Part shown: piece by piece, positions 2,056 to 13,680 of the stretch | Numbering within the stretch: position 1 is the first letter of the stretch | Layout of the letters: every line of letters starts with the position of its first letter | Program-made: the position numbers and the translations under genes | Origin: a virus | Lineage: Duplodnaviria; Heunggongvirae; Uroviricota; Caudoviricetes | DNA: 13,680 nt | Virus record (IMG/VR): IMGVR_UViG_2706794665_000009 | Strand: one strand, 5' to 3' | Notes under the pieces: model-generated | What the model saw: the letters and a program-made list of their open reading frames with translations, nothing else | What the model was told of the DNA's origin: nothing | Database searches by the model: none

Positions 2056-2536
2056 TGACACGGCACCGGAGGCGGTGTACGCCCGTCTTCACGAACAGCT
2101 GGGTGAGGGAACGGTCATCCACATTGTGCCGCGACTGGCCGGGGCCGGAAAGGGTGGACTGCAGATTGTGCTGGGGGCGGCAGCCATCGTGGGCTCTTTC
2201 TTCACTGCCGGGGCATCAATGGCGTTATGGGGTTCAGCCCTGGCAGCCGGTGGTTTTTCTGCCACCACGATGCTGTTTTCACTTGGAGCCAGCATGATTC
2301 TGGGCGGTGTGGCCCAGATGCTGGCCCCGAAGGCAAAAACACCGGATTACCGCGCAACGGATAACGGCAGACAGAACACGTACTTTTCCTCACTGGATAA
2401 CATGATTGCCCAGGGGAACCCGATGCCGGTGCCTTACGGGGAAATGCTGGTTGGCTCCCGCCGTATATCCCAGGACATCAGCACCCGTGATGAAGGCGGG
2501 GGCGGAAAGGTCGTGGTTATCGGGCGGCAGGGGTAA
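2056..2536 (+). CDS. I: Tail assembly protein I, C-terminal ~160 codons (5' end in the N-run)
   Basis: Frame emerging from the gap reads DTAPEAVYARLHEQLGEGTVIHIVPRLAGAGKGG...VVVIGRQG with stop at 2534-2536; Gly/Ala-rich hydrophobic segment as in lambda gpI. Confidence 0.88.
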
Positions 2537-2540
2537 AAAG

Positions 2541-2582
2541 AATAAAAAAATCCCGCAGTGATCGCGGACAGGAACTGCGGGA
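2541..2582 (-). terminator. Candidate intrinsic terminator on the - strand (9-bp stem, then U7 on the - strand)
   Basis: Arms tcccgcagt (2551-2559) and actgcggga (2574-2582) are exact reverse complements; on the - strand the stem is followed by TTTTTTTATT (complement of 2541-2550). Confidence 0.45.
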
Positions 2583-2640
2583 GAGTTACGAAGATTAAGT
2601 GTAAGGAATTATTCTTATATCACGACAAAAAAATTAACGC
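2545..2640 (-). ncRNA. Candidate small non-coding RNA (~95 nt) in the I-J intergenic insert
   Basis: Bounded by a -10/-35 pair upstream and the hairpin plus U-run downstream on the - strand; no ATG-initiated ORF lies within the predicted transcript. Confidence 0.3.
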
Positions 2641-2646
2641 AGAGAA

Positions 2647-2674
2647 ATTATACGCGCCACAGTCAGTTTGTGAA
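2647..2674 (-). promoter_or_regulatory. Sigma70-like promoter on the - strand (TTCACA, 16-bp spacer, TATAAT)
   Basis: Reverse complement of 2647-2652 is TATAAT, a perfect -10; reverse complement of 2669-2674 is TTCACA, 5/6 to the -35 consensus; spacer 16 bp. Confidence 0.4.
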
Positions 2675-2746
2675 AATGTGAAGATATTCAGAATTTTTAT
2701 GCCATTACCGGTTTTAACCAACAGGATTATCGGTGGGCATGAAAGA

Positions 2747-2776
2747 AAACCCCGGTATCTGCTGATACCGGGGTTT
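2747..2776. repeat. Perfect 13-bp inverted repeat with 4-nt loop (strong hairpin, possible bidirectional terminator or insulator)
   Basis: aaaccccggtatc (2747-2759), loop tgct, gataccggggttt (2764-2776); followed on the + strand by the T-rich ctcttt. Confidence 0.55.
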
Positions 2777-2879
2777 CTCTTTAGCATGGCAGAAATGTGT
2801 TTCATGCTTTTCGGGCGAAGGATATCCGACTTCTGTACGGAATGGCAAGTGGCGGTTAATTTATTCAGGGGAAGGCTGT

Positions 2880-5800
2880 ATGGGAAAAGGTGGCGGTAAG
2901 GCACACACGCCTCGTGAGGCGAAGGATAATCTCAAATCCACGCAGATGATGAGCGTGATTGATGCGATTGGTGAGGGACCGATAGAAGGTCCGGTGAAGG
3001 GACTGCAGAGTATCCTGGTGAACAAAACCCCGCTGACGGACACGGACGGTAATCCCGTGATACACGGTGTGACGGCGGTCTGGCGCGCCGGGGAGCAGGA
3101 GCAGACACCACCGGAAGGCTTTGAGTCCTCCGGTGCTGAAACCGGACTGGGCGTGGAAGTGACGAAGGCAAAACCGGTGACGCGCACCATTACGTCCGCG
3201 AACATTGACCGCCTGCGGGTTACCTTCGGGGTGCAGTCACTGGTGCAGACCACGTCAAAGGGTGACCGAAACCCGACATCCGTCCGCCTGCTGATTCAGT
3301 TACAGCGTAACGGTAACTGGGTGACAGAAAAGGATGTCACCATTAACGGCAAGACCACCTCGCAGTTTCTGGCGTCGGTGATTCTGGATAATCTGCCTCC
3401 CCGTCCTTTTAACATCCGGATGGTCCGGGAGACAGCGGACAGCACCACGGACCAGCTGCAGAATAAGACGCTGTGGTCGTCATACACCGAAATCATCGAT
3501 GTGAAACAGTGCTACCCGAACACGGCCATTGTGGGGCTGTAGGTGGATGCGGAGCAGTTCGGCGGCCAGCAGATGACGGTGAACTACCATATCCGCGGTC
3601 GCATCATCCAGGTGCCGTCAAACTATGACCCGGAAAAACGCACGTACAGTGGTATCTGGGACGGCAGTCTGAAACCGGCATACAGCAACAACCCGGCCTG
3701 GTGCCTGTGGGACATGCTGACTCACCCGCGCTACGGCATGGGAAAACGTCTGGGGGCGGCGGATGTGGACAAGTGGGCGCTGTATGCCATCGGGCAGTAC
3801 TGCGACCAGACGGTCCCGGATGGTTTCGGGGGGACCGAGCCGCGGATGACCTTTAATGCGTACCTGGCACAACAGCGTAAGGCGTGGGACGTTCTCAGTG
3901 ATTTCTGCTCTGCGATGCGCTGTATGCCGGTATGGAACGGTCAGACGCTGACGTTCGTTCAGGACCGCCCGTCGGATGTGGTGTGGCCGTACACCAACAG
4001 CGATGTGGTGGTGGATGATAACGGCGTGGGATTCCGCTACAGCTTCAGTGCCCTGAAGGACCGGCACACGGCGGTGGAGGTGAATTACACCGACCCGCAG
4101 AACGGCTGGCAGACCTCCACGGAACTGGTGGAAGACCCGGAAGCCATACTGCGCTACGGACGCAACCTGCTGAAGATGGACGCGTTCGGCTGTACCAGCC
4201 GCGGTCAGGCCCACCGTGCCGGACTGTGGGTGATAAAGACCGAACTGCTGGAAACGCAGACGGTGGATTTCACGCTCGGGTCTCAGGGGCTGCGGCACAC
4301 ACCCGGTGACATCATTGAAATCTGTGATAACGACTATGCCGGGACCCTGACCGGCGGACGTGTCCTGTCCATTGATGCTGCCACCCGCACCCTGACGCTG
4401 GATCGTGAAGTGACACTTCCGGAGACCGGTGCCGCCACGGTGAACCTGATTAACGGCAGCGGTAAGCCGGTGAGTGTGGACATCACCGAACACCCCGCGC
4501 CGGACCGGATACAGGTCAGTACCCTGCCTGATGGTGTGGAGACATACGGGGTGTGGGGACTCTCCCTGCCGTCACTGCGCCGTCGCCTGTTCCGCTGTGT
4601 CTCCGTCCGGGAAAACACGGACGGCACCTTTGCCATCACGGCGGTGCAGCACGTACCGGAAAAAGAAGCCATCGTGGATAACGGTGCCCGCTTTGAGCCG
4701 CAGTCAGGTTCCCTGAACAGCGTCATCCCACCGGCAGTGCAGCACCTGACGGTGGAGGTGAGCGCAGCTGACGGACAGTATCTGGCGCAGGCGAAATGGG
4801 ACACGCCGCGGGTGGTGAAGGGTGTGCGCTTCAGTCTGCGCCTGACCAGTGGTAAGGGAACGGATGCCAGACTGGTGACCACCGCCATCACCGCAGACAC
4901 GGAGCACCGTTTCAGCGGCCTGCCGCTCGGGGAATACACCCTGACGGTGCGGGCGATAAACAGCTATGGCCAGCAGGGTGAACCTGCCACCACCACATTC
5001 CGGATTGCCGCACCGGCAGCACCGTCGCGGATTGAGCTGACGCCGGGCTATTTTCAGATAACGGCGGTCCCGCGTCTTGCGGTGTATGACCCGACGGTAC
5101 AGTTTGAGTTCTGGTTCTCGGAAAAGCGGATTACCGATATCAGGCAGGTTGAAACCACAGCACGCTATCTTGGCACGGCGCTGTACTGGATAGCCGCCAG
5201 TATCAATATCAAACCGGGCCATGATTATTACTTTTATATCCGCAGTGTGAACACCGTTGGCAAATCGGCATTCGTGGAGGCTGTTGGTCAGCCGAGTGAT
5301 GATGCATCCGGTTATCTGGATTTTTTCAAAGGCGAGATAGGGAAAACCCATCTGGCTCAGGAGCTGTGGACGCAGATTGATAACGGTCAGCTTGCGCCTG
5401 ACCTGGCTGAAATCAGGACGTCCATTACGGATGTCAGCAATGAAATCACGCAGACCGTCAATAAAAAACTGGAAAATCAGAGTGCGGCAATCCAGCAGAT
5501 ACAGAAGGTTCAGGTTGATACAAATAATAATCTGAACAGCATGTGGGCTGTGAAGCTGCAGCAGATGCAGGACGGACGCCTTTATATCGCGGGTATTGGT
5601 GCCGGTATTGAGAACACCCCTGACGGCATGCAGAGTCAGGTGCTGCTGGCGGCAGACAGGATTGCGATGATTAATCCTGCGAATGGCAACACAAAGCCGA
5701 TGTTTGTTGGTCAGGGCGATCAGATATTCATGAACGACGTGTTCCTGAAACGCCTGACGGCTCCCACCATTACCAGCGGCGGTAATCCTCCGGCATTTTC

Positions 5801-6353
5801 CCTGACACCGGACGGAAAACTGACCGCTAAAAATGCAGATATCAGTGGCAGTGTGAATGCGAACGCCGGGACGCTCAACAATGTCACAATTAATGAGAAC
5901 TGTCAGATTAAGGGGAAACTGTCAGCCAACCAGATTGAAGGCGATATAGTCAAAACAGTGGGTAAGGCTTTTCCGCGGGACTCCCGGGCACCGGAGCGGT
6001 GGCCATCAGGGACCATTACCGTCAGGATTTATGACGATCAGCCTTTTGACAGGCAAATTGTTATTCCGGCGGTGGCATTCAGCGGCGCTAAACATGAGCG
6101 GGAGAATAACGATATTTATTCGTCATGCCGCCTGATAGTACGGAAAAACGGTGCTGAAATTTATAACCGTACCGCGCTGGATAATACGCTGATTTACAGT
6201 GGTGTTATTGATATGCCAGCTGGTCGCGGCCACATGACGCTGGAGTTTTCGGTGTCAGCATGGCTGGTGAATAACTGGTATCCCACAGCAAGTATCAGCG
6301 ATTTGCTGGTTGTGGTGATGAAGAAAGCCACCGCAGGCATCAGTATCAGCTGA
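2880..6353 (+). pseudogene. J: Host specificity protein J (central tail fibre / tail tip), full length but interrupted by an in-frame TAG at 3540-3542
   Basis: Track ORFs 2880..3542 (220 aa) and 3543..6353 (936 aa) are in the same frame, separated only by TAG. The combined 1157-codon product matches lambda gpJ end to end as recalled (MGKGGGKAHTPREAKDNLKST... through ...[23 protein letters not shown]... to the C-terminus). SD-like AGGGGAAGG precedes the ATG at 2880. Confidence 0.9.
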
Positions 6354-6370
6354 ATTTTATAACCCATATA

Positions 6371-6397
6371 CGGGCGCCAGAAATGGCGCCTTTTTTA
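6371..6397 (+). terminator. Intrinsic terminator downstream of J
   Basis: GGCGCCA (6372-6378), loop GAAA, TGGCGCC (6383-6389), then TTTTTTATT. Confidence 0.7.
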
Positions 6398-6420
6398 TTG
6401 CAGAAAAGCGAGAGGTAATT

Positions 6421-7020
6421 ATGCGTAAAGTTTGTGCAGCCATTTTGTCCGCAGCCATCTGTCTGTCCGTATCCGGTGCGCCTGCATGGGCGTCTGAACA
6501 TCAGTCCACACTGAGCGCGGGGTATCTTCATGCCCGTACGAACGCTCCCGGCAGCGATAATCTGAACGGGATTAACGTGAAATACCGTTATGAGTTTACG
6601 GACGCGCTGGGGCTGATTACGTCCTTCAGTTATGCCAATGCTGAGGATGAGCAAAAAACGCACTACAGCGATACCCGCTGGCATGAAGATTCTGTGCGTA
6701 ACCGCTGGTTCAGCGTGATGGCGGGGCCGTCTGTACGCGTGAATGAATGGTTCAGCGCGTATGCGATGGTGGGTGTGGCTTACAGCCGTGTGTCGACTTT
6801 CTCCGGGGATTATCTCCGCGTAACTGACAACAAGGGGAAAACGCACGATGTGCTGACCGGAAGTGATGACGGTCGCCACAGCAACACGTCTCTGGCGTGG
6901 GGGGCTGGCGTGCAGTTTAACCCGACCGAATCCGTAACCATTGACCTTGCTTATGAAGGTTCCGGTAGTGGCGACTGGCGAACGGATGCATTTATTGTTG
7001 GTATCGGATACCGTTTCTGA
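6421..7020 (+). CDS. lom: Lom outer-membrane beta-barrel protein (Ail/Lom/PagC/OmpX family), prophage moron
   Basis: 199-aa ORF with a signal-peptide-like N-terminus (MRKVCAAILSAAICLSVSGAPAWA) and a C-terminus ...AYEGSGSGDWRTDAFIVGIGYRF matching lambda Lom as recalled; same position as lambda lom between J and stf; GAGAGG SD upstream. Confidence 0.92.
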   Translation: MRKVCAAILSAAICLSVSGAPAWASEHQSTLSAGYLHARTNAPGSDNLNGINVKYRYEFTDALGLITSFSYANAEDEQKTHYSDTRWHEDSVRNRWFSVMAGPSVRVNEWFSAYAMVGVAYSRVSTFSGDYLRVTDNKGKTHDVLTGSDDGRHSNTSLAWGAGVQFNPTESVTIDLAYEGSGSGDWRTDAFIVGIGYRF

Positions 7021-7123
7021 CAACAGACGCCGATTTATCTTCTGTAAATATTGTTATGATACGCAGGTTCATCCACCTTATGGGGTGAACTGCGTTTGAG
7101 GAAACGTAAAGTTACACTGTCCT

Positions 7124-7158
7124 GAAGCCCGTGGCGTCACTGCTGCGGGCTTTTTTTA
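7124..7158 (+). terminator. Intrinsic terminator downstream of lom
   Basis: agcccg ... cgggct stem followed by TTTTTTTATT (7151-7160). Confidence 0.6.
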
Positions 7159-7171
7159 TTGGTGGAAAAGT

Positions 7172-10100
7172 ATGACAGTAAAAATTTCTGGCGTGCTTAA
7201 AGATGGCACAGGAAAACCAGTACAGAACTGCACCATTGTGCTGAAGGCCAGACGAACCAGCAGCACGGTGGTGGTGAACACGGTGGCCTCTGAAAATCCG
7301 GATGAAGCCGGACGTTACAGCATGGATGTTGAGCATGGTCAGTACAGCGTCACCCTGCTGGTTGAAGGTTTTCCGCCTTCACATGCCGGGACCATTACCG
7401 TCTATGAAGGTTCCAGATCAGGTACGCTGAATGATTTTCTCGGTGCCATGACGGAGGATGATGTCCGACCGGAGGCACTGCGCCGCTTTGAGCAGATGGT
7501 GGAAGAGGTGTCACGTAACGCCTCCGCGGTTGCACAGAATACGGCAGCCGCGAAAAAATCAGCCAGCGATGCCAGTGCATCAGCCAGCGAGGCGGCAACT
7601 CATGCAACCGATGCTGCAGCCTCAGCACGTGCCGCCAGCACGTCAGCCGGACAGGCCGCGTCGTCGGCTCAGTCAGCGTCTTCCAGCGCAGGAACGGCAT
7701 CGACAAAGACCCGTGAAGCAGCAAAAAGTGCTGCTGCTGCAGAGTCATCAAAAAGCGCGGCAGCTACCAGCGCCAGTGCCGCGAAAACGTCAGAAACGAA
7801 TGCCGCAGCATCACAAAAATCGGCAGCCACTTCTGCATCCACAGCGACCACGAAGGCGTCAGAAGCTGCCACCTCGGCACGGGGTGCGGCGGCCTCAAAA
7901 GAGGCAGCGAAATCTTCAGAAACGAATGCATCATCAAGTGCCAGTAGTGCAGCTTCCTCGGCAACGGCGGCAGGAAATTCCGCGAAGGCGGCAAAAACGT
8001 CCGAGACGAACNNNNNNNNNNNNNNNNNNNNNNNNNNNNNNNNNNNNNNNNNNNNNNNNNNNNNNNNNNNNNNNNNNNNNNNNNNNNNNNNNNNNNNNNN
8101 NNNNNNNNNNNNNNNNNNNNNNNNNNNNNNNNNNNNNNNNNNNNNNNNNNNNNNNNNNNNNNNNNNNNNNNNNNNNNNNNNNNNNNNNNNNNNNNNNNNN
8201 NNNNNNNNNNNNNNNNNNNNNNNNNNNNNNNNNNNNNNNNNNNNNNNNNNNNNNNNNNNNNNNNNNNNNNNNNNNNNNNNNNNNNNNNNNNNNNNNNNNN
8301 NNNNNNNNNNNNNNNNNNNNNNNNNNNNNNNNNNNNNNNTGCTTCAAAAGATGAGGCGACCAGACAAGCGTCAGCAGCGAAAGGTAGTGCCACGACAGCA
8401 ACAACGAAAGCATCAGAGGCGGCAGGCAGTGCGACGGCTGCATCTCAGAGCAAAGTTGCTGCTGAATCCGCGGCAACGCGCGCCGAGACAGCAGCAAAAC
8501 GGGCAGAGGATATTGCATCCGCCGTGGCGCTGGAGGATGCGAGCACGACGAAAAAGGGGATAGTACAGCTCAGCAGTGCAACAAACAGCACCAGTGAAAA
8601 GCTGGCGGCAACGCCAAAGGCAGTTAAAACTGTTAAAGATAGTTCAGTTCAAAAAACTGGCGACACAATGGGAGGGCAGTTAAAAATCAGCACGATAAAT
8701 GCTCTTCGAATATTCAACCAAGCCTTTGGCCTTATTTTTAGGCGTTCCGAAGATCATCTTCATCTTATTCCGACTAATGAAGGGGAGGGGGAAAATGGAG
8801 ACATCGGTTCATTAAGACCATTCTCTATAAACTTAAGATCAGGGTTGGTGTCCATCGGTAATGGACTAAAAGTTGGTGGTAGTGTTACTGGTAATTTGAC
8901 CGGAAACGCAGATACTGCGACCAAGATCAAGACAGCACGTAAGATTGGGGGCGTGGCATTTGATGGATCGGCAGATATCAACTTGCCTGGAGTCAACGCT
9001 ACCGGTAATCAAAACACTACAGGTAATGCTGCGACCGCCACGAAACTTCAGGCAGCCAGAACGATTAACGGTGTGTCATTTGATGGTAGTGCAAATATCA
9101 CATTGACCCCTTCAAATATTGGGGCATTGGCATTAACTGGAGGGACTCTTTCAGGTGGTTTAACTGCTGCTGGTGAGGTTATTTCAAGGTCAGCAAATGG
9201 TCTGCGTATTGCCTATGGCAACTATGGATTCTTTATCCGAAATGATGGATCAAACACATATTTTATGTTGACAGATTCGGGTAACAGTCTTGGTACGCAC
9301 AATAGCTTAAGGCCGTTTATAATTAGTAACCATACTGGCAATGTTACAATTGCAACTAAATTAAACGCGAGTGGTGGTATCACTGGATCTTTATCGGGTA
9401 ATGCAAGCACAGCAACCAAATTGCAAACTGCAAGGACAATTAACGGCGTAAAATTTGACGGCTCGGCAAATATTGAAGCGTTTCCGCCAGGTGTTCCGCT
9501 GCCGTGGCCATCAGATACACCACCTGCAGGTTATGCAATCATGCAGGGGCAGACGTTTGATAAGGCAGCATATCCGAAACTGGCTATTGCCTATCCTTCA
9601 GGTGTTATTCCAGATATGCGCGGCTGGACAATCAAGGGCAAACCCGCCAGTGGCCGGGCCGTATTGTCTCAGGAACAGGACGGCATAAAATCGCACACCC
9701 ACAGCGCCAGCGCATCCAGTACGGATTTGGGGACGAAAACCACATCGTCGTTTGATTACGGCACTAAATCCACGAATAACACCGGGGCGCATACGCACAG
9801 TCTGAGTGGCTCTACGGGGTCTGCCGGTGTTCATACTCATGGTAATGGTATTCGTTGGCCAGGAGGCGGCGGTTCTGCGTTAGCATTTTATGATGGCGGT
9901 GGGTTCACTTATGTCCAGAATTCACAGTATCAAGTAAGCCCGGAGACTTCTTCCTATAGATCGTATTATCAACGTATTCAGACACAGTCAGCAGGTGCTC
10001 ATACCCACTCGCTGTCTGGTACTGCAGCAAGTTCTGGCGCACATGCACATACTGTAGGTATTGGTGCGCATACGCACTCCGTTGCGATTGGTTCACATGG

Positions 10101-10185
10101 ACACACCATCACCGTTAACGCTGCGGGTAACGCGGAAAACACCGTCAAAAACATCGCATTTAACTATATTGTGAGGCTTGCATAA
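7172..10185 (+). CDS. stf: Side tail fibre protein Stf; interrupted by an N-run (8012-8339) with a reading-frame change across it
   Basis: N-terminus [28 protein letters not shown]... and the Ala/Ser/Thr-rich repetitive region match lambda Stf as recalled. After the gap the product continues in a different frame (codons from 8341; track ORF 8524..10185) with ...[42 protein letters not shown]..., three tail-fibre repeats (TATKLxxARxIxGVxFDGSAxI) and a His-x-His-rich tip ending ...[22 protein letters not shown]. Confidence 0.88.
8012..8339. other. Unresolved sequence (328 N) inside the repetitive part of stf
   Basis: Run of N; length is not a multiple of 3, and the stf frame differs on either side. 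Confidence 1.
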
Positions 10186-10769
10186 TGGCATTCAGAATGA
10201 GTGAACAAGCACGGACCATAAAAATTTATAATCTGCTGGCCGGAACTAATGAATTTATTGGTGAAGGTGACGCATATATTCCGCCTCATACAGGTCTGCC
10301 AGCAAACAGTACCGATATTGCACCACCAGATATTCCTGCTGGCTTTGTGGCTGTTTTCAACAGTGATGAGGCATCGTGGCATCTCGTTGAAGACCATCGG
10401 GGGAAAACGGTTTATGACGTAGCGTCAGGGGACGAGTTATTTATTTCTGAACTCGGTCCGTTACCGGAAAATGTTACCTGGTTATCGCCGGAAGGGGAGT
10501 TTCAGAAGTGGAACGGCACAGCCTGGGTGAAGGATACGGAAGCAGAAAAACTGTTCCGGATCCGGGAGGCGGAAGAAACAAAAAACAACCTGATGCAGGT
10601 AGCCAGTGAGCATATTGCGCCGCTTCAGGATGCTGCAGATCTGGAAATTGCAACGGAGGAAGAAACCTCATTGCTGGAAGCCTGGAAAAAGTATCGGGTG
10701 TTGCTGAACCGTGTTGATACATCAACTGCACCTGATATTGAGTGGCCTACGAACCCTGTCAGGGAGTAA
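10185..10769 (+). CDS. tfa: Tail fibre assembly protein Tfa
   Basis: 194-aa ORF ([44 protein letters not shown]...) near-identical to lambda Tfa as recalled; start overlaps the stf stop (TAATG). Confidence 0.93.
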
Positions 10770-10818
10770 TCATTGGGATTATGCCGCAGCACGTCTTAAG
10801 CAAGAACGTGCTGCGGTT
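10608..10818 (+). repeat. Direct repeat copy A (~211 bp): tfa 3' end plus ~50 bp downstream including a hairpin
   Basis: Aligns without gaps across the coding part to 11657-11868 at roughly 85-90% identity by eye, with scattered substitutions. Confidence 0.85.
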
Positions 10819-10832
10819 GGATGCTATTTTTT
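10783..10832 (+). terminator. Intrinsic terminator downstream of tfa (11-bp stem plus T-run), convergent with the methyltransferase 3' end
   Basis: ccgcagcacgt (10784-10794), loop cttaagcaaga, acgtgctgcgg (10806-10816), then tggatgcTATTTTTT. Confidence 0.55.
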
Positions 10833-11492
10833 CCCTGAAGCGGAAAACATTACTACAGTACCTTGAACCTTGGTTTTAACATTCTCGAAATGCTCTGAGA
10901 GTATATGTGTTAAGCCTTCTTCGGAATCTTTTGTGTTTGAAAAGATGCCTTTCTGATTGTAAATGCGCATCAGTTTTTGACCGAAGCTATTGTGCACAAC
11001 TCCATCGCCAAGAATTGTGGCTCCGTATAGAGTTCCATCGTCAGTTAAGGCCTGCGCCGCATTGCGTATTACACAGCTTTTTGTAGATATATTTCCAGGC
11101 AGGCAGTGAAGAAGGTAAAACATGGAAATGGAATCAAATTGACCATGTAACGCCGCGGGATAAGGTTCAAAAACATCATGGCTAATTTTATGTTTAATTT
11201 TTGATTCCCCAGCCCTTGTAGATGCCGCGTTCAGGCTAGCTTCGTTCAAATCCATTAAAGATATCAGACTACTCTCAGGTACGTGAGTAAGGTAAAACCC
11301 AGTTCCAACACCAATATCCAGATGGTTGTTACCTAAATGTTCCAGAAAGTGTGGAAGAAGGTGTTCCTTTGTAGGACATCCCCATGCAAGCCGATTTGAT
11401 ACTCCCAAAACCCACCAGTCATAAAGCTTTAGGGTAAGTGGTGTGTAAATTTTAGCCCCATCATCTGTGTTTTTTTTCATTGATTTCACCAT
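10824..11492 (-). CDS. Class I (Rossmann-fold) SAM-dependent methyltransferase, substrate unknown; AT-rich moron
   Basis: 222-aa ORF on the - strand with motif I (HLDIGVGTGFY), a downstream acidic motif (LISLMDLNEA) and motif II-like FDSISMFYLLHCLP. No DPPY/NPPY or PCQ motif, so not an obvious DNA methyltransferase. Visibly more AT-rich than the flanking tail genes. A second ATG at 11480 (MKKNTDDG...) has a better SD-like GGTGA and may be the true start. Confidence 0.8.
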   Translation of the reverse strand: MVKSMKKNTDDGAKIYTPLTLKLYDWWVLGVSNRLAWGCPTKEHLLPHFLEHLGNNHLDIGVGTGFYLTHVPESSLISLMDLNEASLNAASTRAGESKIKHKISHDVFEPYPAALHGQFDSISMFYLLHCLPGNISTKSCVIRNAAQALTDDGTLYGATILGDGVVHNSFGQKLMRIYNQKGIFSNTKDSEEGLTHILSEHFENVKTKVQGTVVMFSASGKK

Positions 11493-11548
11493 GTTATAGT
11501 TTTATTTGTGAATTAAATCAATTATGGCGATGAATTACAAGGGGTTAA

Positions 11549-11818
11549 ATGCTGCCGCAGCATAGCGATATTGAAATAGCCTGGTATGCTTCGATACAGC
11601 AGGAGCCGAATGGCTGGAAGACCGTCACCACACAGTTCTACATCCAGGAATTCAGTGAGTATATTGCGCCACTGCAGGATGCAGTAGATCTGGAAATCGC
11701 AACGGAGGAAGAAAGATCGTTGCTGGAGGCATGGAATAAATATCGGGTATTGTTGAATCGTGTTGATACATCAACTGCACCTGATATTGAGTGGCCTGCA
11801 AATCCTGTCAGGGAGTAA
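11549..11818 (+). CDS. Tfa-like C-terminal domain ORF (89 aa), probably a remnant of a second tfa allele
   Basis: C-terminal 55 aa (...[53 protein letters not shown]) are homologous to the Tfa C-terminus at 10605-10769; the N-terminal 34 aa are unrelated to the Tfa N-terminus. Confidence 0.5.
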
Positions 11819-11868
11819 TCATTGGGATTATGCCGCAGATACGTCGTATGCAGGAACGTGCTGCGGTT
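11657..11868 (+). repeat. Direct repeat copy B (~212 bp), partner of 10608-10818
   Basis: Same as copy A; homology ends at ...gaacgtgctgcggtt in both copies. Confidence 0.85.
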
Positions 11869-11932
11869 AGTTTGTGAGCTTTCGATAGTGGTTGTTATTT
11901 TTGCCCTTATTTGTTCCGGAGGCCATGGTTCA

Positions 11933-12103
11933 ATGGTCCGTCTGCCCCCTGTGGTGATGTCAGCAAAATCAGCCACTGCGCGAACCACAATAGCCCGGGA
12001 AGATGCTGAAGATCACCAGGTAAAGCTGTCAGCGCAGAAACTGGAAGAACTGCTCGCATCAATGGTTAAGGATGAGGTTGATCGCAATGATGGGATTTAT
12101 TGA
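11933..12103 (+). CDS. Hypothetical small protein (56 aa), low confidence
   Basis: ATG at 11933 (MVRLPPVVMSAKSATARTTIAREDAEDHQVKLSAQKLEELLASMVKDEVDRNDGIY) with GGAGG 10 nt upstream; the same frame stays open for 29 more codons after the TGA at 12101-12103, ending at TAA 12191-12193. No recognisable family. Confidence 0.2.
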   Translation: MVRLPPVVMSAKSATARTTIAREDAEDHQVKLSAQKLEELLASMVKDEVDRNDGIY

Positions 12104-12229
12104 CGTCAGCGAGAGCAGAAGGAAGAACTGAATAACCTGAATGATTTACGCTCAATCAGAGCGATGGCGATTAGCGGCAATCACGCTCGATAAAATTAAC
12201 CTCGGTGATCATCCGGGGTTTTGCATTCA

Positions 12230-12459
12230 TTAAAACCGCATCAACCTTTCCACCAATTGTTCTTTACGGGCAACGATCCACCCATGTTGCTCCAGATAAA
12301 ATTTAAACCGTTCCAGAGTGCATACCATCGCATCGGCGGGGACTTTTTCTGTGAACTCGACCTGACCGTGTTTATCGAAGTGGATCAGTAATGCGCATCC
12401 ATTATTTGGGGCGGGGGAGTTTTGTGCTGCAGGAGGACGTTTGTGGAGTTCTTCTTCCA
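12230..12459 (-). CDS. C-terminal ORF fragment on the - strand emerging from the N-run; possibly the 3' part of the Rha-like gene
   Basis: Open frame ...IHFDKHGQVEFTEKVPADAMVCTLERFKFYLEQHGWIVARKEQLVERLMRF with stop (complement of 12230-12232). It is in a different frame from the Rha-like 5' part if the gap is exactly 270 nt. Confidence 0.3.
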
Positions 12460-12729
12460 NNNNNNNNNNNNNNNNNNNNNNNNNNNNNNNNNNNNNNNNN
12501 NNNNNNNNNNNNNNNNNNNNNNNNNNNNNNNNNNNNNNNNNNNNNNNNNNNNNNNNNNNNNNNNNNNNNNNNNNNNNNNNNNNNNNNNNNNNNNNNNNNN
12601 NNNNNNNNNNNNNNNNNNNNNNNNNNNNNNNNNNNNNNNNNNNNNNNNNNNNNNNNNNNNNNNNNNNNNNNNNNNNNNNNNNNNNNNNNNNNNNNNNNNN
12701 NNNNNNNNNNNNNNNNNNNNNNNNNNNNN
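12460..12729. other. Unresolved sequence (270 N) inside the Rha-like gene region
   Basis: Run of N. Confidence 1.
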
Positions 12730-13007
12730 CCAGTAAATCCCATTACGAGGAACATGAAGCCGTCTTTTGTGATCAGGTAGCATCGTGATTCACGTTCTGC
12801 GCCGTTGCCAATTTCGACAGTCTGAACATCGGCCGAAAAGTTGGCTGATGTAAATTCGGGAGAGCAGTCGAGTGTGTCAATCTTAGCTAAAACGTGTTTA
12901 TGTTGTTTATCGAAGTAGTCGGCAACAGCTTGAGAGGTGGTAACCAGGCGACCATCTTTGAAAAAGACTTTTGGTGACTCGTTAGAAAAAGTTATAGCTG
13001 TATTCAT
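12730..13007 (-). CDS. Phage regulatory protein, Rha family (antirepressor-like), N-terminal part; 3' end in the N-run
   Basis: ATG at 13007 (- strand) preceded by GGAG with 9-nt spacing; product MNTAITFSNESPKVFFKDGRLVTTSQAVADYFDKQHKHVLAKIDTL...CYLITKDGFMFLVMGFT resembles the Rha/pRha N-terminal domain as I remember it. Confidence 0.6.
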
Positions 13008-13032
13008 ATGTGATGACTCCAATTAATTGGAT

Positions 13033-13066
13033 GATCACCACCTCTGACGCCAATCAGGGAGGTGGT
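13033..13066. repeat. 10-bp perfect inverted repeat with 14-nt spacer, 26 bp upstream of the Rha-like start (candidate operator or 5' UTR hairpin)
   Basis: tcaccacctc (13033-13042) and gaggtggtga (13057-13066) are exact reverse complements. Confidence 0.45.
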
Positions 13067-13582
13067 GAGACGTACAGGGTTGGCGTAACCGGTCATCACA
13101 AAACCCGGCGCGGATTTCTCCGCCCCTGCACGCCCCACCATAATGCGAATGTGGCAATGCTTAACGCAAAAAAAACCGCAAACGCGGCTATGCGTTGTGA
13201 TGTTATCCGAGACGCCAATCCCGACAACCGATTTTGCGGTTGTGTGAGGAATATAGCCCCGGAGAACAAAAACTGTCAACGGGCAAAAAAATTTCCGTTA
13301 TCAGGAATGTATAAAATTAAAGCGATCGAGCAAAAAATCCTTTCTGCAAAACTAAAAAAGATTTCAATAAAATCAGGCAGTTAAAAACACGGAAAACGGT
13401 ATAAAAAAGCGCCTCAAAATCCTGTTTTTTCTTTCAGATACAATGTCTTATTGCATTTTTTAAAACATGTCAGTGTGGTACATGGATATCGATACCATCG
13501 CCAATTATAAACTGGGCGGTGCACAGCAACATGATAGCGTACGCCTCGATCCGTGGGTGTTTATGTTCTCAGCAGGATATCG

Positions 13583-13680
13583 GGTAATGACTCCAACTTA
13601 TTGATAGTGTTTTATGTTCAGATAATGCCCGATGACTTTGTCATGCAGCTCCACCGATTTTGAGAACGACAGCGACTTCC
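13583..13680 (-). mobile_element. IS1 insertion sequence, terminal 98 bp (right end, inverted orientation); remainder lies beyond the window
   Basis: From 13583 the + strand reads GGTAATGACTCCAACTTATTGATAGTGTTTTATG..., the reverse complement of the IS1 right terminal inverted repeat as recalled; the - strand encodes the InsB C-terminus. Confidence 0.9.
13598..13680 (-). CDS. insB: IS1 transposase InsB, C-terminal fragment (5' part outside the window)
   Basis: - strand translation ...KSLSFSKSVELHDKVIGHYLNIKHYQ with stop (complement of 13598-13600), matching the InsB C-terminus as recalled. Confidence 0.85.
   Translation of the reverse strand, partial: KSLSFSKSVELHDKVIGHYLNIKHYQ

Follow-up and report, generated by a model that had tools for sequence, protein, structure and literature searches.

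The side tail fibre gene (stf) of a lambdoid prophage is very probably a mosaic, in which a central cassette of 283 codons, made of fibre-shaft blocks, was exchanged in frame and acts as a spacer. This cassette comprises two putative beta-prism knobs of the T4 gp34 and Mu S type together with three copies of a 40-aa TATK repeat. Sequence similarity to other alleles is lost and regained sharply at its borders, the same flanks enclose different interiors in other phages, and its recognizable homologues are shaft elements of other fibres. An earlier note on this DNA had proposed that modules were exchanged by recombination inside the fibre gene. The exchange is borne out by shared, sharp breakpoints, by the restricted distribution of the module and by a phage in which the same tip is paired with another centre.

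Prophage context and layout of stf

The window (the whole stretch of DNA that was analysed, 13,680 nt) contains the tail end of a lambdoid prophage, minor tail genes included. A near-identical prophage is present in E. coli VR50, where it is flanked by an ompW remnant and then by yciE/F/G and trp genes. Based on gene order, the fibre gene is a lambdoid stf: it lies downstream of J and lom and is directly followed by tfa (Table 1), after which comes a minus-strand gene for a SAM-dependent methyltransferase. A Pfam search placed PF08400, the prophage tail fibre N-terminal domain, across Stf aa 1-134 (E = 5.6e-70), and the other end of the protein carries a collar (PF07484) and a His-rich tip (PF03335), as in the related tips of lambda Stf and T4 gp37. 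Nucleotide identity to lambda in the tip and tfa is 76-94% over 9478-9834 and 10048-10769. The RefSeq label for this allele is only generic ('prophage tail fiber N-terminal domain-containing protein', WP_000216487.1). An NCBIfam scan returned no family for the full Stf, and Rfam returned no RNA family within 8640-9480.

Three runs of N are present in the window, and one of them, a masked run at 8012-8339, interrupts stf inside the Ala/Ser-rich shaft. The two halves of the gene lie in apparently different frames because this run has 328 nt against 341 nt in VR50, and the frameshift between them is not interpretable as real. Residue numbering for Stf was taken from the VR50 copy, which is intact at 1008 aa. 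An assembly artefact as the source of the central module is ruled out, since hundreds of complete genomes carry an identical copy of it. Elsewhere in the window, J contains a TAG codon, and a second tfa remnant is present in direct, not inverted, orientation.

Table 1 Coordinates of stf, its neighbours and its parts within the window
Feature	Position	Strand	Remarks
J	2880-6353		Upstream of lom and stf
lom	6421-7020		Between J and stf
stf, side tail fibre gene	7172..10185	+	Assigned from Pfam PF08400 N-terminal domain and gene order
Left junction motif, Pfam PF03406 Phage_fiber_2	8542..8652	+	P0002 residues 7-43, E = 2e-17
Central module, very probably exchanged, aa 491-773 (283 aa)	8629..9477	+	GC ~0.43-0.44, GC3 0.34; in the place of lambda Stf aa 386-528
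Knob A (GDTMGGQL...SLRPFSINL...LKVGG), aa 501-574	8659..8880	+	Diverged paralogue of knob B
Repeat R1 core, aa 586-607	8914..8979	+	
Repeat R2 core, aa 626-647	9034..9099	+	40 aa after R1
Knob B, aa 670-743	9166..9387	+	Homologue of Mu S 268-341; aligns to the P4 beta-prism part of T4 gp34
Repeat R3 core, aa 751-772	9409..9474	+	With the collar, common to the H gene of P2_4A7b (91.6% nt identity)
Tail collar domain PF07484, start of conserved tip	9490..9633	+	
His-rich (HxH) distal tip with PF03335 repeats	9634..10185	+	Nucleotide similarity to lambda absent over 9834-10006
tfa, tail fibre assembly gene	10185..10769	+	Travels with module and tip

Breakpoints and base composition of the central module

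Using blastn, we compared the VR50 stf-tfa region with lambda 4W, mEp332, phage 204576, P2_4A7b and Cyrano. Similarity to all five phages ends at 8627/8628, and the last shared codon is K490 (8626-8628) of the motif ...AATPKAVK, which is common to all compared alleles. It resumes at 9409 in P2_4A7b, at 9478 in lambda and at 9502 in mEp332 and phage 204576. The limits of 8640 and 9480 given in the earlier note were thus nearly right, about 10-20 nt away from the natural borders at 8628/8629 and 9409-9502. In lambda numbering the joints correspond to K385 and S528|A529. Loss and regain of nucleotide similarity are therefore abrupt and fall at shared positions in several alleles, as expected of a mosaic gene.

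Ur-lambda Stf (P03764) and the lambdoid Stf alleles have the PF08400 domain and the Ala/Ser shaft in common with this protein, as well as its ATPKAVK junction, collar and HxH tip; their genes are likewise followed by tfa, and lambda has the same J-lom-stf-tfa gene order. The earlier note took the central region of lambda Stf to be different, and it is: no similarity to lambda was found between 8628 and 9478. The lambda interior of 143 aa (PLDSPALTGTPTAPTA...GAGENS) has no knob, no TATK repeat and a GC content of 0.527; its place is taken here by 283 aa of unrelated sequence that include two knobs and three TATK repeats. A patch of the distal tip also differs from lambda (Table 1). We found no relevant literature on the junction peptides MDETNR and GAGENS.

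The interiors of the remaining alleles differ as well, so the module is not a common property of lambda-family stf genes. Those of mEp332 and 204576 are 420 aa long, with one knob and one TATK repeat each (GC 0.473 in 204576, the copy measured). Phage 204576 is 96.9% identical over the tip and tfa and has a different central module, indicating that centre and tip assorted independently at some time. In the H gene of P2_4A7b, the junction motif and R3 plus collar are shared at 90-92% nucleotide identity and the interior is again different. The same flanks are thus found around different interiors. With modules of 143, 283 and 420 aa, a change in fibre length, as suggested in the earlier note, is a reasonable consequence.

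The joints can also be set beside engineered fibres. Functional chimeric STFs were made by fusion at lambda R393 and S528 (Brodel et al. 2024, PMC11338833), and the natural joints at K385 and S528|A529 lie at or adjoining these points. The two cases differ in what is exchanged: everything distal to the fusion is replaced in the engineered chimeras, whereas the natural allele differs from lambda in the interior between the joints only.

The central segment of stf is AT-richer than its surroundings, which was the observation that drew attention to it. GC content is 0.432 at 8640-9480, compared to 0.601 and 0.557 for the shaft, 0.515 for the tip and 0.523 for the whole window; between the natural borders (8629-9477), it is 0.43-0.44, with the Ala/Ser shaft at 0.59 and the tip at 0.51. 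By codon position (GC1/2/3), the module (aa 491-782) has values of 0.455/0.510/0.342 and an overall GC of 0.436, compared to 0.537/0.778/0.444 for the shaft and 0.522/0.566/0.447 for the tip, which places module GC3 about 10 points below both. Much of the difference in GC between module and shaft is due to amino-acid content, because the Ala/Ser-rich shaft has a high GC2.

The AT-richness might accordingly be a mere by-product of residue usage (Asn, Ile, Lys, Gly and Thr versus Ala and Ser) and silent on origin. GC2 is 0.778 for the shaft and only 0.510 for the module, a fall that explains much of the 15-point drop in GC, and pockets of low GC3 are present elsewhere in stf, at aa 326-400 and 901-975, where it reaches 0.32-0.36. 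We nonetheless regard this explanation as unlikely: GC3 is 0.342 in the module versus 0.465 in the rest of stf (Fisher p = 3.5e-4; p = 5.6e-3 versus 150 flanking codons on each side), and the compositional shift coincides with the breakpoints. In addition, the distal part of Cyrano S, which is made of like units, resembles the module in GC (0.447) and GC3 (0.353), and the Ala-rich shaft common to stf and Cyrano S has a GC of ~0.57-0.59. GC is therefore not uniform across stf, both GC and GC3 being lower in the module. The signal is real yet moderate, since GC3 is just as low in some further short stretches of stf, and composition by itself is no proof of foreign origin.

TATK repeats and knob domains

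The module contains three copies of a 22-aa core, TATK(L/I)xxAR(T/K)I(N/G)GVxFDGSA(N/D)I, and these occur exactly where the earlier note had placed three tail-fibre repeats. What had been described as a motif of ~25 aa is indeed repeated, but its true core has 22 aa and lies inside a longer unit. R1 and R2 are arranged in tandem at a spacing of exactly 40 aa, and the same period recurs in Cyrano S, whose tandem array has copies at aa 701, 741 and 781, and in the database homologues, as judged from their consensus; because of this recurrence, we assign the core to a 40-aa unit. Of the Gly/Asn/Thr-rich linkers that were said to separate the copies, only the one between R1 and R2 holds up, as the gap between R2 and R3 is 103 aa long and contains a putative beta-prism knob. 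Another knob precedes R1.

Within the protein, the best 22-mer self-identity is 20/22 (R2 versus R3), compared to maxima of 12/22 in 200 shuffles of the whole protein and 11/22 in 500 shuffles of the module. At the DNA level, the cores have nucleotide identities of 0.67-0.68 and third-position identities of 0.32-0.50, and a DNA-level repeat search picks up no repeat at any of the three. Because third codon positions are close to random, the TATK repeats are old and have been maintained by selection at the protein level, not produced by recent duplication. Homologues are found in prophage-like loci of Bacteroidota, Firmicutes, Proteobacteria and bacteria of the candidate phyla radiation (for example, Saccharibacteria), and in >20 PHROG families, most of which are annotated as tail or tail fibre.

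These data make it scarcely credible that the three copies stem from slippage or a recent duplication within the gene and that the region is an expanding repeat array. The tandem arrangement of R1 and R2 with a 40-aa period and the agreement of R2 and R3 at 20 of 22 residues would fit such an origin. It is contradicted by the low third-position and core nucleotide identities, by the lack of hits in the DNA repeat search and by the occurrence of the same repeat in fibres of many phyla; moreover, R3 is nearer to the P2_4A7b copy than to R1 or R2.

The three repeats do not correspond to the Pfam phage tail fibre repeat under which the earlier note had suggested looking for them: PF03335 matches the HxH tip (Stf aa 873-886), and PF03406 matches the left junction. 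A fragment spanning R1 and R2 had no relevant Pfam match at E ≤ 10 and, with phmmer against the PDB, only a marginal match to Dec (E = 0.17). A profile built from 25 TATK units was more sensitive, matching the C-terminus of phage L Dec (6e3c) and the tail fibre protein gp47 (8vbx) with E-values of 8e-5 and 1e-4. Both share the motif NAxTAxKLxTARTI...FDGSAN(I/V)T; unlike the repeats in stf, theirs is a longer variant with a 7-residue insertion, and Dec is a capsid protein. For the C-terminal spike of Dec, the authors of that structure proposed a triple beta-helix modelled on gp34 (PMC6449081). The TATK repeat would most likely form turns of a triple beta-helix.

The two knobs, which the earlier note had overlooked, are paralogous (local alignment score of 98 for A versus B). 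The Pfam family PF21446 (Gp34_trimer) matches the module in two stretches at 94-99 bits, compared to a gathering cut-off of 27. One spans 9016-9324, covering R2 and knob B (E = 1e-26 to 4e-28); the other probably corresponds to knob A. Knob B has ~80% protein identity to Mu S residues 268-341 (PDB 5yvq, E = 1.9e-32). Together with R2 it aligns to T4 gp34 residues 997-1121 (4uxe, 5nxf and 9x3r; E of ~1e-16 to 1e-17 for 4uxe and 5nxf). In the crystal structure of T4 gp34, triple beta-helix segments at 1014-1047 and 1105-1128 bracket the P4 beta-prism, a domain with a five-stranded antiparallel sheet that is ~3.8 nm wide (PMC5537660).

Based on these alignments, we would expect the same architecture in Stf as in T4 gp34 (4uxe, 5nxf, 5nxh and 9x3r; PF21446), namely a beta-prism stacked within a triple beta-helix. 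Unlike gp34, stf comes from a siphovirus-type prophage and has the domain twice, and the canonical TATK sequence is missing from the part of gp34 that aligns to R2. The fibres of Mu (S; 5yvq, 9ki1) and of P1, P7, D108 and P2 (S and H) are alike in having knob B, with 74.9% nucleotide identity to Mu, P1, D108 and P2, and Mu S also has the ATPKAVK junction motif. They differ in that their N-terminus and receptor-binding end are unrelated to Stf here, and in that these phages are myoviruses, some with invertible segments.

An AlphaFold2 monomer model of aa 470-799, computed from a 66-sequence alignment, had a pLDDT of 65 and a pTM of 0.36, too weak for claims on the fold beyond local strands. At this level it contained a small beta-hairpin for each repeat and runs of beta-strand in both knobs, with a local pLDDT of 74-85 for the strands of knob A. 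Foldseek ranked 5yvq and 4uxg (Mu S and gp34) first for the predicted model, at a TM-score of only ~0.15.

Distribution of the cassette and its probable assembly and role

The module is present at full length and ≥99% identity in 423 of 5,426 complete E. coli genomes (~8%), compared to 4,265 of these genomes matched by a wider query reaching from the shaft end to the tip (8340-10185). No deposited phage genome holds ≥80% of the module. Its pieces match fibre genes of P1, P7, Mu, P2, D108 and Cyrano at 70-76% nucleotide identity, and fibres of cyanophages and roseophages also match over the repeats. Where the module occurs in complete E. coli genomes, the same tip almost invariably accompanies it (427 records versus 426). 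Between VR50 and strain 203740, identity is 100% from ~8509 to ~10600 and upstream drops to 94% for the shaft and 86% for the N-terminus. This pattern indicates that the recently transferred unit consisted of module, tip and tfa, and recent crossovers, as judged from such comparisons, appear to have fallen in the repetitive shaft, not at the module borders.

The cassette probably derives from a pool of modules common to P1, P7, Mu, P2 and T4-type fibres, a pool that tends towards lower GC. On its left it is flanked by the PF03406 motif ...AATPKAVK and on its right by R3 with the PWPSD collar, two motifs that are conserved at the nucleotide level among many otherwise unrelated fibre genes. Homologous recombination within these short conserved stretches would swap the interior in frame.

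It is highly improbable that an invertase of the Cin/Gin/Pin type made the exchange at crossover sites, the way such enzymes act on invertible fibre segments in P1, Mu, P7 and e14. Such exchange was proposed for stf genes (PMC3945230), and parts of the module resemble variable and constant regions of the S genes of P1, P7 and Mu. P1/Mu-type inversion at stf was rejected on the grounds that no inverted repeats of ≥18 nt were found in 7000-13680 and that the part of the VR50 prophage covered here carries no annotated invertase gene; the direct orientation of the second tfa remnant also speaks against it.

Swapped in by homologous recombination, as we favour, the cassette would fold into a trimeric shaft, with two beta-prisms interrupting the turns of a triple beta-helix. 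A rigid trimeric spacer of this kind would set the length and stiffness of the shaft. It would connect the N-terminal anchor and the Ala/Ser-rich shaft with the HxH tip, which binds the receptor and whose folding would depend on Tfa. Receptor choice should then fall to the collar, the HxH tip and Tfa. On the present analysis, a structural role as shaft or spacer is the likeliest one for the module.

The earlier note had instead suggested that the module changes secondary-receptor recognition, a proposal for which we found no support. Under it, the module would be a second receptor-binding site, with knobs that bind surface glycans along the shaft, and its exchange would alter host range. Carbohydrate binding by beta-prism and beta-helix domains is known from other phage proteins, and it was speculated for the Dec C-terminus (PMC6449081). 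Against this, the homologous domains belong to the proximal half-fibre in T4 gp34 (PMC5537660) and lie upstream of the distal end in Mu S, the canonical binding parts (collar, HxH tip and Tfa) exist downstream, and no binding-site motif was found in the module. We consider a second site of this kind improbable. Because its homologous domains are shaft elements in gp34 and lie upstream of the distal end in Mu S, receptor binding by the module itself is, in our analysis, unlikely.

Two bolder ideas go beyond the spacer role, and we give them little credence. The pan-phylum 40-aa TATK unit, for which our searches gave no Pfam match, could serve as a universal linker for in-frame recombination of fibre cassettes, or the knobs or the TATK turns could form a lateral, low-affinity glycan site, so that exchange of the central module by itself would retune host range without a change of tip.

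That lambda, P2, P1, Mu and the T-even phages trade fibre segments horizontally has long been documented (cited in PMC3945230). The stf module is an additional, well-resolved example of this ordinary tail-fibre mosaicism, and the current picture of tail-fibre evolution is unchanged by it. Its natural joints coincide with or adjoin sites that engineers already use for functional STF chimeras, and the 283-aa cassette could be a natural spacer variant for fibre engineering. For the lambdoid phages, it provides a worked example of side-fibre genes assembled from interchangeable cassettes.

Probable recombination in the stf shaft

We compared the window with the near-identical prophage of Escherichia coli VR50, in which the side tail fibre gene stf is intact (1008 aa). 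Identity rose from 98.6% over positions 2056–8011 to 99.95% over 8340–12166, with the change falling across the masked shaft, and similarity to VR50 ended beyond ~12166. A comparable pattern was found between VR50 and another strain, 203740, with 86–94% identity upstream followed by 100% from ~8509 to ~10600. The repetitive, Ala/Ser-rich shaft therefore appears to be a site of recent crossovers. It also contains six copies of a degenerate 33-nt repeat, spaced by multiples of 3 nt, an array that fits a shaft liable to unequal recombination.

Three runs of N mask parts of the window (Table). Because the run within stf measures 328 nt, compared to 341 nt in VR50, the two halves of the gene seemingly lie in different frames.

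Table. Features of the window by position
Feature	Position	Strand	Remark
N-run	1807–2055
In-frame TAG	3540–3542		within J
33-nt repeat array	7547–7936		stf shaft
N-run	8012–8339		within stf
TATK unit	8914–9099		stf central module
TATK unit	9409–9474		stf central module
Unmatched patch	9834–10006		His-rich tip of stf
IS009	10528–10726	+	Rfam, 225 bits; within tfa
Direct repeat, first copy	10593–10818		tfa 3' end and adjoining downstream sequence
SAM-dependent methyltransferase gene	10824–11492	−	bracketed by the direct repeats
Direct repeat, second copy	11642–11868
N-run	12460–12729
C4 antisense RNA	13058–13145	−	Rfam
isrK Hfq-binding sRNA	13169–13243	−	Rfam

J, tfa and RNA families

The TAG codon, at which VR50 has CAG (Gln221), breaks J (2880–6353) into two ORFs and may reflect a defective prophage or else a sequencing error. 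Downstream of stf, the end of the tail fibre assembly gene tfa is duplicated as a direct repeat of 88–89% identity. The enclosed methyltransferase region looks like a cassette inserted beside the remnant of a second tfa. An Rfam search returned three matches exceeding the gathering score, none of which falls in the stf central module.

The TATK unit and the His-rich tip

Besides its positions in the window, the 40-aa TATK unit was located at loci L009–L086 and at L008 (S of phage Cyrano). It occurs at 60–83% protein identity in fibre-like genes of many bacterial phyla, and even cyanophage P-TIM68 and a roseophage share it, at ~70% nucleotide identity. The capsid decoration protein Dec of phage L carries a longer, related form. 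No model was matched in a Pfam scan with the 40-aa unit.

One patch within the His-rich tip (Table) resembles none of lambda, mEp332 and P2_4A7b at the nucleotide level. This patch is likely to be the hypervariable, receptor-contacting end of the fibre and a second mosaic patch of stf.
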